Shown here in pieces: positions 3,179 to 62,903 of a stretch of DNA of 64,000 bases (position 1 is the first letter of the stretch; each line of letters starts with the position of its first letter). Origin of the DNA: Octopus vulgaris (taxonomy: Eukaryota); contig OX597838.1 in NCBI GenBank assembly GCA_951406725.2, positions 8,680,001-8,744,000 on the forward strand, given 5' to 3'. A model generated the notes under the pieces. The model saw only the letters and a list, made by a program, of their open reading frames with translations, made no database searches and was not told where the DNA came from. Position numbers and translations under genes: made by a program.

Positions 3179-3214
3179 CTTTTACGTTTCGAGCCTATGC
3201 TCTTCAGCAGAAAG
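3179..3214 (-). ncRNA. Minimal type I hammerhead-like motif (variant core CUGCUGA), in element family E (about 3090-3275)
   Basis: CTTT-CTGCTGA-A-GAGC-ATAG-GCTC-GAA-ACGT-A-AAAG; stems I and II pair, stem III palindromic. Confidence 0.6.
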
Positions 3215-4631
3215 GAACACGACGAAATAAAAAGAGAGAAAATTTAAAAAAAGAAACGCATTTAGCGGTCAATCATGGTAGTTGGACAGGAGAGCTAGGA
3301 AGACGGGGAGATAATAAAGTACTGGTGATCCCAAAACGAAGGTGTGCGTGCGTGCGTGTGTGTATGTGAGAGTGTGTAAGTGTGTGTGGATAGGGGCTAG
3401 TGACTTTGATGTCTGGATGTGTAAGTGTAAGTGTGTGCGTCTGTAATTGTGTGGGTGTGTGGATGATGGTGCCGGCGCTGGAGAGTGGTCAGTGACAGTG
3501 TGTGTGGAGTGGTGTGAGGTGGCGTGATGTCATGTGGTAGCTCTTATATATAGTCGCAAGGAGGATGTTCAAACCTGCTGTAGGGATATTTATCCAAGAT
3601 ACACTGGTTTAGTATATTATTATATTGTGAAGAGATATTTCTTCAATGTATATATTATATAGAATACCATAAGATATCAAACACTTTTATTGAGTTAGAA
3701 AACAGAGAGATCTAATGGATACAAATTAATTTATTCATTAATCAACATATTAACCAACAATTGTTTCATTTCTCAAGATTAAAATTACGAAACGTAAAAA
3801 TATGATTTTGCATTTTAAATCCCTTATAAGGAAAATCGTAAGGGTTTTCAGAGAACAATAAGGATTACACTGGGATACTTTCGGAATATACAAAACATAT
3901 AAACATGTATATATCATATATATGTATGTATGAATGTATGTATGTATGCATGTATGTATATATATATATATATATATATATATATATATATAGTGTGTGT
4001 GTATACCTATGTATGTATACATAATTACATCCGCATTTATCTCGATATACATATATGTGTGTGTCTATGTATATATGTGTGTGTGTGTGTGCACGCGTAC
4101 GCACACACACATACACACACATGTATGCATGCATATACATATCTGCATGTATATGCATACATACCATTTTCCTGAACATATATGAAGAATAAAAACATGT
4201 TAAGAATAAGATTAAGGATCAGAAAATTCATCCAATAAATATTACACATATAAAGAGATGGATTTTGTCCCCTAATTCTTTTATTTTGTTATTTATTTAT
4301 TTATTTATTTAGTCCCCTTCTGAAAGTGAACTTGTTTGCAGCTTTAATAAGAAGCTTCTGCCAAGGTACGACTTCCTGGTAATTTGCCGATAACTTTTAG
4401 GGCTGACAAAACCATTTATTATTTAGCTGAGAACTCAGCACGGGAACAGAGTGCCTTTGGATGGGAGTCGCGCGATTACTTAGGGTATTTTTTTCCCTTT
4501 CTTCTGTTCCATTTTCATTAATTTCTTCTTCTTCTTTTTTTAAGGTAAAAACGTTATGGAAAATATCTGGAAAATATCTGGAAATAAAATATAAAATACG
4601 AGATCTGTTATGATTCATTGACATGCAGTAA

Positions 4632-4866
4632 ATAGATAGATAGATAGATAGATAGATAGATAGATAGATAGATAGATAGATAGATAGATAGATAGATAGA
4701 TAGATAGATAGATAGATAGATAGATAGATAGATAGATAGATAGATAGATAGATAGATAGATAGATAGATAGATAGATAGATAGATAGATAGATAGATAGA
4801 TAGATAGATAGATAGATAGATAGATAGATAGATAGATAGATAGATAGATAGATAGATAGATAGATA
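4632..4866. repeat. (GATA)n microsatellite
   Basis: Visible. Confidence 0.98.
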
Positions 4867-6134
4867 AAGGCGCATGGACGGATGGATGGATGGATGGATT
4901 GATGGATAGACAGACAGACAAACAGACAGACAGACAGACAGACATATAAATAGAAAGAGAGAGAATGTGTGTAAGAGAACTGTGTGCATGAGAAAGAGAG
5001 AAGGAAAATTTCGCTATAATCGTTGAAAAAACAGTTCTTCACATGGAATAGTGATTAAATATTTATGCATACTTACATATACGCGTGTGTGTGAGTGTGT
5101 GTGTGTGTGTGTGTATACTTGCGCACACACACACATACATACATATATATATATATATATATATATATATATATATATTAATGGCATTTTCAATTACATC
5201 CGGACATACATATTTAAGCATACAATACAGAAAATATACCACATGAATCTATGCATATAAATATATTCTTTAAAATGTATACGCGCAGATATCTCTGTAG
5301 ATTTACTCACACACACACACACACAAGTTGGTTTTTCTTTTCCTTTTCAGTATTTAGTTCTTTTTTTTTTCTTACCAAGAACCTTTTATATATTTACAAC
5401 AACAGAACCATGGATGTACACGGAGGAGAATTTACTGAATCTATACGTGTGTATGTGTGTGTATGTGTGCACGTGTGTGTGTGTGTGTGTGTGCACGTGT
5501 GTATGTGTGTGTGTGTGTGTGTGTGTGTGTGTGTGTGGATACATATCAACGCGTAAATGAGTGATTTATAAATATTTTAGATTGCATTATTTTCTTGGAG
5601 AAAATATTTGTTTACAAAGTATGCGCAGAAACGATGTACGCAAACATATAAAGTAGTGCACCCATACACACACACACACAGATACTCGCATACACCCACA
5701 TCTACATACATGCACACATTTATACATAAACATATTTGTACATACACACATGCGTGGCCTTCATGTACACACATTACAGGACAGAGAAGACAGCTCACAT
5801 CACAATTTCTCCAAATATTTCCTGAAAAAGAGCTCCTAATCGCGAAATATTGAAATTCGAGGTAAAAGTACAAAATATCGACTTGTATTATTTCTTATAA
5901 CTTGCAATGTCTTCAATTTAGACAAAATCAAAAGCATATATGTGTATGCGCGTATGTGTAATCATCTACAGATACACACATATATATAGGTATAAATGTG
6001 TGTCTGTGTGTGTATTTGTATAAAGATATGTATATGTATATATATATATATATATATATATATATATATATATATATATATATATATATATATATATATA
6101 TATATATATATATATATGTATATATGGTGGTGGT

Positions 6135-6431
6135 GACCCCCTTCGGTCAGACACTGACCATGGGTTTGCACCTAGAGAGTTACCCTCTGAGGCACAAGTC
6201 TGGGCAAGGTTGTTTTTTATGGAAGACCAGCAGTCGCCCATGCATACCGGCCTCCCCTCTCCACGTCACCGATGTTGTCCAAGGGAAAGGCAAGGGCCGA
6301 TACAGCTTGGCACCTGTTAACTGGAGCAACGTGAGATAAAGTGTCTTGCTCAAGAACACAACACGCAGCCCGGTCCGGGATTCGAGCTCACAACCTCACG
6401 ACGCTCTAACCACTGAGCCACGCGCCTTCAC
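6135..6431 (-). mobile_element. tRNA-derived SINE, family D
   Basis: Head GTGAAGGCGCGTGGCTCAGTGGTTAGAGCG; near copy at 30604-30918. Confidence 0.85.
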
Positions 6432-6906
6432 TATATATATATATTATATTTATATATATATATATATATATATATATATATATATATATATATATATACA
6501 TACAAATATTGTATATATATATGTGTGTGTGTGTGTGTATGTGTGTGTGTGTGTGTGTATATGTATCTATATATGTTATGTATATATATATGTGTGTGTG
6601 TGTTTGAGAGAGAGAGTGTGTGAGTGTGTGTGTGTGTGTGTGTGTGTGCGTGTGGAGAGAGAGATGCAATTATGTGGATAAATAAATGAGATACATTAAG
6701 TATATTAAATATATTAAATATAACAGGTATGAAATACAAAATATGGTATCTATGTATACATACAAAACGAGAGAAAGTAAAAGGAGGAACCTTTCAGATG
6801 ATGAATTTGTAAGTTTAAATATCTAGATGTTTATATTAATAGATTCAACTTACACAGAGTACAAAGGACAGAGAAAACTAAAGGGGTGGAAGAAAAGTGT
6901 TATAAA

Positions 6907-60789: not shown

Positions 60790-61544
60790 ATATAATAATA
60801 ATAATATGGGCTTCGTATATTTTACCCCAGTGTCGCTTTGATGGCATGCACTGCTCTCTCACTCAATAATAATAATAATAATAATAATAATAATAATAAT
60901 AATAATGGTTTCAAATTTTGGCACAAGGTCAGTAAATTTGTGGGGAGGGGACTAGCCAATTATATCGACCCCAGTGCATGACTGGTACTTAATTTATCGA
61001 CCCCAAAAGAATGAAAGGCAAAGTCGACCTCGGCAGAATTTGAACTTGGAACTTAAAGACGGGCGAAATGCCGCGAAGCATTTCGTCCAGAATACTAAAG
61101 ATTCTGCCAGCTGGCTGCCCTAATCATCATCATCATCATCGTTTAACGCCCGTTTTCCATACTGGCATGGGTTGGACAGTTCTAGTGGTGTCTGGGAAGC
61201 CAGGAGGCTGCACCAAGCTCCAGTATGATCTAACGCCAACCACTCCGAGAGTGTAGTGGGTGCTTTTTACGTGCCACCGGCACAGGTGCCAGAGGAGACT
61301 GGCAGCGGCCACGATCGGTTGGTGCTTTTTACGTGCCACCGGCACGGAAGCCAGTCAAGGCGGCGCTGGCATCGGCCACTACCAGCACAGGGATCACAAC
61401 TACAATTTCGATTTGATTTTGATTTTGATGTACTTGACTTTATAGGTCTCCTCAAGCACAGCATGTCGCTGGAAATAATATTAATGATTTCTTTGCGGTG
61501 GTGCCCCAGCATGGCCGCGGCCTTCGGGCTAAAACATTTTAAAG

Positions 61545-61905
61545 GATTTAACCACAAAGGGTTTACATTAAAAAAAGAACATTATGGCCAGCACAGGACA
61601 TAGATAAAGTGGGGTTAGATGAAAGTCGTGCAAACCATGCATGAATGAAACAATAAAATTCCCCAAAAGAATGAGACCTCTTAGAACGCTCTTGGAAACC
61701 CCACAAATCCATGACAGTCCTGACCACCAGGGTAAGTACCCTCTCCACTTTGTCTACAGGTGCATGCTTAGAGTAGGCCCATTCACTCGGGTCATTCTTG
61801 CAACATTCACAGAACCCTTTAACAAAATTGTTGGGGGCCATAACTTCCATCTCCGCCCTCACTTTCTTTTTCAAGTGAAATTTGAAAAAGTGGATGAAGG
61901 GCATC
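61545..61905 (-). mobile_element. Diverged relative of the L1/Tx1-like LINE 3' end
   Basis: FFKFHLKKKVRAEMEVMAPNNFVK, frameshift, then VNVARMTRVNGPTLSMHL*; aligns with the 521-655 peptide. Confidence 0.75.
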
Positions 61906-61906
61906 A

Positions 61907-62125
61907 TGGCGTTAGGAAGGGCATCCTGGCGTTAGGAAGGGCATCCTGGCGTTAGGAAGGGCATCTTGGCGTTAGGAAGGGCATCCAGCTGTAGAAACTC
62001 TGCCAGATCAAGATTGGAGCCTGGTGCAGCCATCTGGTTCGCCAACCCTCAGTCATTCGTCCAACCCATGCTAGCATGGAAAGCAGATGTTAAACGATGA
62101 TGATGATGATGATGATGATGATGAT
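61907..62125 (+). mobile_element. Retroposon 3' end with (GAT)n tail, preceded by four copies of a 20-bp unit
   Basis: (TGGCGTTAGGAAGGGCATCC)x4 ... CCAACCCATGCTAGCATGGAAA...TTAAACGATGATGAT; related inverted tail at about 61125-61200. Confidence 0.75.
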
Positions 62126-62868
62126 GGATGAGAGTTTGGTCAAAGAGAAAAGTATCTGTCTTCATCCCTTTCAATCTGATCCACCACACGTCTCTCGCTA
62201 AGGCCACCAGGCAAAATAATAACCATTTACATCTGTTTTTCCGTGTTATCATGGGTTAGACAGGCACCACAGCCTCTCACAGGGTTGTCATAGTTCTGCA
62301 TCATCTCCAACACACATCGTCAGGAAAAACCAAACCCCATTTATACACTAGAGATGTTGCCTCCATCACTGTACATCATTCTTTTCTTGGATATTTTTTT
62401 TCCATTTTTTTGGCAAAGAGGGTATCAGGAGTATTCCCTATTAGCTAAAAACCTTTCCACTTTATAACAGTGAGAGTATTTAATTGAACCTTTTGAACTT
62501 TTACTTACTCTCATCTTTGGCCAACCATTTTAAAGAATGGTCTGCATATGTGTTACTCTGCCACCAGCACCAGAGAAGGTGTCTCTGGCGGAAAAAAAAA
62601 AGAAGAAAAATAATATTAAGAACAAAGCCTTCTGTTATATAAATATTTATTTCAAATAAAAAGGCACTCACACACATATATATATATATACATAAACTGT
62701 TCTATAGCTATAGACAGACAGACAGATAGATAGAGAGGAATCTTGCAACATATAGATTTATATATATATATATATATAGTTAATCCAAACATGAAAACAC
62801 AAAGAGAAAACACAACGCGAGGACGTGGAACAAGTATAGTATTATTGGACGCTCAGGAAAGAAGGAGG

Positions 62869-62903
62869 GTTTAACGTTTCGAGCAGAGCTTTTCGTCAGA
62901 AAC
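62869..62903 (-). ncRNA. Minimal type I hammerhead, canonical core CUGACGA, family E (about 62779-62975)
   Basis: GTTT-CTGACGA-A-AAGC-TCT-GCTC-GAA-ACGT-T-AAAC; first stem II pair is an A-C mismatch. Confidence 0.65.

Follow-up and report, generated by a model that had tools for sequence, protein, structure and literature searches.

The question raised by this locus is why a single stretch of octopus DNA should hold more than a dozen hammerhead ribozyme motifs, and whether they do anything there. The stretch, called the window throughout, covers 64,000 nucleotides of Octopus vulgaris (contig OX597838.1, positions 8680001-8744000) from an assembly of 2.8 Gb in 227 contigs. A preliminary description had listed 13 minimal type I hammerheads in it, had ascribed them to Penelope-like elements (PLEs) or retrozyme-like inserts, and had proposed that they form a reservoir able to cut host pre-mRNA. 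Our analysis leads to a reading to which we give a probability of about 0.9: the motifs lie in the 3′ ends of families of dispersed repeats. Four of these families are joined to Neptune- or Hydra-type PLE genes and two are non-coding and tandem-capable; their copies were probably inserted by target-primed reverse transcription into (TA)n-type microsatellites and carry mostly solo hammerheads predicted to be weak or inactive.

All 13 motifs were located at the positions listed. The window was searched with a type I hammerhead descriptor, and 60 segment-wise dinucleotide shuffles of its non-repeat parts, with the repeats left in place, served as controls. The strict setting (exact CUGANGA core, stem I of at least 3 bp) gave 6 matches against a shuffle mean of 0.017 (maximum 1), and the relaxed setting (one core mismatch tolerated, stem I of at least 4 bp) gave 9 against 0.13 (maximum 2), so that the proposed comparison with dinucleotide-shuffled sequence comes out in favor of the motifs. 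Nine of the 13 satisfy a descriptor, eight in the shuffle-controlled run and 62869 in a separate run; the others (19095, 6907, 23113 and 53976) fail as they stand, and relatives of each bear hammerheads. All the listed motifs come from repeat families in which the hammerhead layout is retained. In nine of them, stems I, II and III close a three-way junction open at stem I, with broken or weak stems in the other four. The core (CUGANGA and GAAA, with an NUH site) is canonical in 22473, 35527, 45615, 50411, 58323, 62869 and 6907. Non-canonical cores comprise U4C in 27728 and 31625, C6 and U6 in 3179 and 19095, respectively, the decayed 23113 and 53976, and a U3-A8 covariant form in a fourteenth motif at 33703-33739 (minus strand), which was absent from the earlier list.

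The notion that such motifs arise by chance in DNA rich in AT and in repeats is refuted for the 13 listed ones by these counts and by their family membership, and its overall probability is negligible. It could draw on three further hammerhead-like matches, at 7116 (7112-7157, minus strand), 31432 (31427-31477, minus strand) and 46390 (46387-46432, plus strand), which have no relative among the retrieved loci and could be chance or rare families, and on shuffles of a genome sample, which yield about one tenth of the relaxed matches. Rfam at its gathering score recovered none of the motifs (0 matches in the window and five loci); in an E-value scan, microsatellite-like microRNA models dominated and no hammerhead family was among the matches listed.

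Tandem repeats make up about 33% of the window, and TA-type microsatellites 9.7%, compared with 4.2% in 60 genome regions. A TA, TACA or TATC tract lies 37-130 nt 3′ of 10 of the 13 motifs, whereas 32% of positions picked at random have one no more than 200 nt away (P = 0.0011); on the 5′ side, just 4 motifs have a tract within 200 nt. The claim that most motifs point into such a tract thus holds, and 6907, 35527 and 53976 were correctly named as its exceptions; the tract 3′ of 23113 comes after the tail of a different element. Two other claims stand in part. The contexts were called unrelated, which fails for five motifs, since 3179/19095 and 27728/31625/62869 make up two sister families with near-identical hammerheads. 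The spacing of one motif per 5 kb describes the window and not the genome, where 2.9 matches would be expected per 64 kb as against the 9 seen here.

Each motif that was searched falls into a dispersed family whose 3′ junction is fixed, usually into (TA)n, and whose 5′ ends vary; PLE-type 5′ truncation, partial tandems and inverted 5′ copies all occur across the families. Linkage to PLE genes was assessed by protein search (tblastn) for reverse transcriptase (RT) and GIY-YIG endonuclease in retrieved loci bearing each family's end. RT with a C-terminal GIY-YIG domain lies upstream of the hammerhead end in the families of 3179/19095, 33703, 50411 and 58323. The suggestion of 5′-truncated PLE ends sitting in (TA)n is borne out by these four direct links.

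More specifically, 3179 and 19095 (79% identical) form one family, A1. The first is a 3′ end at 3092-3538 on the minus strand (core 3183-3210) with C at position 6, where the family has U; the second is a short copy at 19001-19165 on the minus strand, flanked by two microsatellites, with a U6 core and ACGU changed to ACAU. An endonuclease lies upstream on the same strand in 7 of 14 other A1 loci, and the parent element encodes RT, a CX4CxxC linker and a CCHH-type GIY-YIG domain. The 33703 motif belongs to the 3′ end of a young Neptune-type family (33601-33870, minus strand); in 28 of 30 loci, this end comes after the endonuclease. The 781-aa frames of this family match Pfam RVT_1 and GIY-YIG and contain the CX4CxxC linker, CCHH and DKG; they recur across the genome with a U3-A8 hammerhead at their end (L230:1755-4097, L231:1822-4164, L232:3082-5424). 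Features of Neptune (CX2-5CxxC linker, CCHH in the endonuclease, DKG) were found in the translations of loci L231, L165 and L166. Judged by these motifs, the A1 and 33703 parents appear to match the Neptune description, in features partly common to Nematis and thus not separating the two.

Two further families fit the Hydra definition of PMC8557442. The 50411 motif lies in the 3′ end of a very young element (50372-50490, plus strand; core 50423-50452 intact), of which the 119-nt end is 100% identical at many genomic places and follows an endonuclease in 9 of 19 loci. The 58323 motif (58153-58440, plus strand; core 58327-58369 intact) is located 3′ of a Hydra-type endonuclease in 22 of 29 loci, the query's own excluded. 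The frames tied to both show DKT, a CxCX5C linker and no CCHH (translations of L280, L277 and L233), and the target is (TA)n. A homologue search with the Hydra-type frame returned 31 proteins without names, of 524-740 aa, giving no clade label. The family of 35527 (35496-35711, minus strand; intact hammerhead 35527-35632, in a copy without a terminal (TA)n junction) is probably also a Hydra-type end; in one locus (L052) out of 13, it is joined without a break to an endonuclease of that type.

Two families are non-coding. The first, A2, unites 27728, 31625 and 62869, and its hammerhead differs from that of A1 at few positions. Its unit of about 200-219 nt is represented by a copy at 27707-27852 on the plus strand (core 27732-27758, U4C), a copy at 31529-31714 on the minus strand (core 31629-31655, U4C) and a full-length unit at 62779-62980 on the minus strand (canonical core 62873-62899, a single stem II mismatch). 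Its 5′ end recurs from copy to copy, and none of 19 loci has an endonuclease upstream of it. Across the genome, 11 joints of tail to head were found, and two of these are spaced 219 nt from each other. A Neptune frame 3′ of one A2 copy (L010/L164) was ruled out as the A2 parent, its own end being of the 33703 type. The second family is that of 22473, a partial monomer at 22385-22655 on the plus strand (core 22479-22527 intact); elsewhere, in L088, 464-nt non-coding units form head-to-tail tandems together with a 5′ copy in inverted orientation, and no PLE protein match was obtained in 13 loci. As to the retrozyme-like inserts that had been suspected, these two tandem-capable families seem, from their layout, to behave like non-LTR (long terminal repeat) retrozymes.

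A separate tandem array of an approximately 359-nt non-coding unit, flanked by (TA)n, was found at L104:2160-4760 (G000:C1, near 20.002-20.005 Mb). It contains seven identical canonical-core type I hammerheads, five on one strand and two inverted, and has the looks of a classic non-LTR retrozyme, which makes it the strongest candidate for circular RNA.

The remaining motifs belong to further families. The repeat at 6791-7078 (minus strand) carries a hammerhead at about 6907-7025 with an intact core, a proximal stem I of about 2 bp and a stem II insert of about 97 nt; the stem II insert of 35527 measures 77 nt. Stem II regions of 53-92 nt also occur at L111:8428-8500, L112:97-169, L153:9516-9628, L234:1289-1367 and L300:3698-3776, so that hammerheads with a long stem II are frequent in the octopus genome and would elude the usual descriptors. 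The 45615 motif lies in an old, low-copy, PLE-like terminal repeat (45508-45680, plus strand; core 45621-45651 intact) with 14 relatives at 72-89% identity. The 53976 motif is a decayed hammerhead of an old family (53916-54030, minus strand), with one mismatch each in stems III and I and five relatives at 70-75%. Finally, 23113 (motif about 23113-23156) sits in a decayed, rearranged copy at 23059-23260 (minus strand) of a U3-A8 hammerhead family, fused to another element's tail. Relatives with U3-A8 hammerheads and long inverted arrangements lie at L111:7700-8330, L163:5854-5960 and L142:9760-9990, with no coding region seen. A further family with a CUGAAGA core, a ACAAUUGU stem III and short inverted pairs occurs at L008:1270-1450 and L030:2400-2710, and its tail is the piece found 3′ of 23113.

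Motif structure, family membership, fixed (TA)n 3′ junctions, 5′ truncation with inverted pieces, RT/GIY-YIG linkage and tandem units are features of the DNA itself; their origin may be pictured as follows. Going by published work, the GIY-YIG endonuclease, which has a zinc-finger linker, would prefer and nick (TA)n. Reverse transcription would begin at the 3′ end of the element RNA and usually halt early, so that a hammerhead 35-130 nt from that end would be copied most often and would point into the tract. Each insertion would leave flanking TA repeats into which later elements could insert, and families would thus pile up and nest in microsatellite-rich regions. In tandem masters, two hammerheads would pair through their palindromic stem III and cut the precursor RNA.

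The abundance of the motifs was estimated from 120 evenly placed 10-kb regions (1,199,800 bp in total), with three shuffles as control. This sample holds 39 intact-core matches (canonical or U3-A8) as against 1-4 per shuffle and 54 one-mismatch matches as against 5-7, seven of the sample matches stemming from a single tandem array. Scaled to the genome, this amounts to about 86,000 intact-core motifs (bootstrap 48,000-132,000) and about 113,000 one-mismatch motifs (73,000-159,000), and the claim of a very large number is supported. Homology to 11 window families gave 63 copies in the sample, or about 147,000 when scaled, decayed copies included. At these rates, the window is about threefold richer than the genome, with 7 intact-core matches seen and 2.1 expected, and 9 one-mismatch matches seen and 2.9 expected. 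With descriptors that differ from ours, 126,247 motifs have been counted in the axolotl (PMC7229834), whose genome is given as 28 Gb (bioRxiv 10.64898/2026.07.22.740005), and about 9,000 in Xenopus tropicalis (PMC4209133).

Could so many copies cut host transcripts? With some 86,000 intact-core motifs, many must be intronic, and in a few families (22473, 50411) stem III reaches the length that a monomer would require. The 4-8-nt palindromic stem III of most solo copies would by analogy call for a partner, and such copies are likely to be nearly inactive: cleavage by a lone minimal PLE hammerhead was undetectable, and that by dimers was low (PMC4209133). Folding favored the self-dimer over two monomers in all nine motifs folded, by 2-9 kcal/mol. 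Furthermore, of the two families with the most copies, one carries U6 and the other mostly C4, and the related A6C and U4C changes lower activity (PMC3088659; PMC7151607). Masking the window and translating the remainder revealed no recognizable host exon, which is not proof that the window is intergenic. An active reservoir of solo copies cutting pre-mRNA at a relevant level is therefore quite improbable, and the proposal is left unsupported. Since solo short-stem-III copies need a partner, the single motif in PMC4209133 showed no cleavage and few motifs fold as double hammerheads, cutting would be limited to a possible minority, for which 22473 and 50411 are the best monomer candidates.

The family A1 deserves separate attention. 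Of 30 sampled rows, 4 lacked the core and were dropped; in the other 26, drawn from several subfamilies, core position 6 is always U, and exact patterns count 16,703 U6 and 197 A6 copies genome-wide. The corresponding count for A2 is 12,723 exact copies, mostly C4; loose core patterns for 58323, 35527, 22473 and 6907 were too unspecific and were dropped from the copy counts. Over 11 core columns of A1, the mean majority frequency is 0.98, compared with 0.84 over 89 tail columns. At position 7, each of the four bases occurs (T 42, A 26, C 19, G 13 by hand count in the first 100 listed copies), and the cleavage-site base H17 is A in 9,268 copies, U in 4,825 and G in 109 (0.8%), with C left uncounted. 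Natural A6C has low activity in Mg2+ (PMC3088659) and prefers Mn2+ over Mg2+ (PMC7151607), and U4C reduces activity as well (PMC3088659); the A1 hammerhead is predicted to cleave weakly.

One explanation of this pattern is that A1 has been catalytically dead since the A6U change and is retained solely as an RNA structure or sequence recognized by the element's protein. We give it somewhat less than an even chance. Changes at position 6 are damaging (PMC3088659), Naiad PLEs lack canonical hammerheads and have spread nonetheless (PMC8557442), and conservation in A1 covers the loop of stem II as well as the core. Against it, the positions of the motif at which A1 subfamilies differ are N7 and H17, the latter being either A or U and hardly ever G, the pattern tolerated by a working hammerhead; this variation is only suggestive because few independent master changes underlie it. 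An attenuated, still selected ribozyme seems to us the most likely state of A1, by a narrow margin. A bolder picture, which we consider unlikely, is that the octopus holds a hammerhead collection of the densest class (about 100,000) whose largest family is an active, undescribed A6U ribozyme, maintained by selection over several rounds of retrotransposition and possibly altered in its metal preference as A6C is, and that throttled U6 and C4 cores permit high copy number without wrecking host transcripts.

Several observations weigh against the overall reading of PLE-derived 3′ ends with weak hammerheads. Within 250 nt of the intact-core matches of the genome sample, tracts are nearly symmetric (18 of 32 on the 3′ side and 16 of 32 on the 5′ side, random 22%), which is expected for short inserts within tracts and carries no polarity signal, and the number of matches does not correlate significantly with the number of microsatellites over the 120 regions (rho 0.14, P 0.14). 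The double-hammerhead shape is the minimum free energy structure in 3 of 9 motifs (22473, 35527, 50411) and in none of the three family-A copies. The near-invariance of the A1 stem II loop extends conservation beyond the catalytic positions. No parent gene was found for 6907 (no PLE protein match in 13 loci), 45615, 53976 or 23113, the last of these without a protein search, and a single locus ties 35527 to a PLE gene. The clade names were assigned by the motifs defined in PMC8557442, without a tree containing named references, and do not separate Neptune from Nematis.

Other features of the window stand apart from the hammerheads. A heavily decayed and interrupted Hydra-like PLE coding fragment lies at 960-2600 on the minus strand with no hammerhead attached; its motifs were recognized by eye, and tblastn backs the RT piece at 2400-2513 alone (E = 9e-6). 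A protein search with 1501-1863 returned only a short interspersed repeat embedded in the frame. Short decayed pieces at 521-660 and 61563-61931, both on the minus strand, resemble by eye what we take to be long interspersed nuclear element (LINE) reverse transcriptase. At 10982-12499, a minisatellite with a 15-bp unit and about 101 copies has long open frames in several phases.

Because the hammerheads are real and four of their families are tied to PLE genes, most of this is known biology; the U6 core variant of A1 is likely new, and the motif density is high. A literature search for A6U or U6 core spellings found no such natural family described, with Lunse et al. 2016 and Arkhipova et al. 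2017 outside its coverage, and we provisionally regard the family as undescribed. The octopus repeat annotation (PMC13282606) reports recently active Penelope-like families, and its main text contains neither 'hammerhead' nor 'ribozyme'. The function of PLE hammerheads has been called unclear (PMC8557442). On whether PLEs need them for retrotransposition, the octopus genome offers a natural experiment: young families with canonical, U3-A8, U4C or A6U cores stand beside non-autonomous monomers and forms with a long stem II, and intron orientation could be scored over tens of thousands of copies. If the A6U family cleaves, the hammerhead consensus widens, and standard descriptors and Rfam overlook the most abundant forms; if it is dead, a PLE family has spread widely without catalysis.

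Among known systems, the minimal hammerheads of metazoan PLEs (Cervera and de la Pena 2014, PMC4209133) share the type I form, the extra nucleotide between A9 and stem II, the short palindromic stem III, the predominance of solo copies of truncated PLEs, the many sequence families per genome and U3-A8 covariants. In contrast, a family-wide U6 core and stem II inserts of 77-97 nt are undescribed there, as far as the available text goes, and the density estimated here, about 30-40 per Mb, is considerably higher than the figures for coelacanth and Xenopus (4,000-9,000 per genome), which were obtained with other descriptors. The endonuclease-bearing (EN+) Hydra and Neptune PLEs of Craig et al. 2021 (PMC8557442) have the same C-terminal GIY-YIG domain, clade-specific linker, CCHH and DKT-DKG motifs, hammerheads and (TA)n insertion; canonical hammerheads occur in Hydra and other canonical PLEs, Hydra targets (TA)n, and Neptune is biased to microsatellites. 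The octopus elements differ in their long 3′ untranslated regions (about 0.7-1.1 kb) and in having some Hydra-type copies so young that their 119-nt ends are 100% identical. Non-LTR retrozymes (Cervera and de la Pena 2020, PMC7229834; bioRxiv 10.64898/2026.07.22.740005) are likewise non-coding units of 200-460 nt with one type I hammerhead, present as monomers and tandems and originating from PLE ends, whereas A2 and the 22473 family carry minimal PLE-type hammerheads and are mostly monomers. The closest counterparts of the altered cores are the natural A6C of phage Bcep176 and the U4C of a viroid (PMC3088659, PMC7151607), which also combine a pyrimidine at position 6 or a C at position 4 with an otherwise complete core. 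In contrast to those single sequences, U6 is fixed here in more than 16,000 exact copies across several subfamilies.

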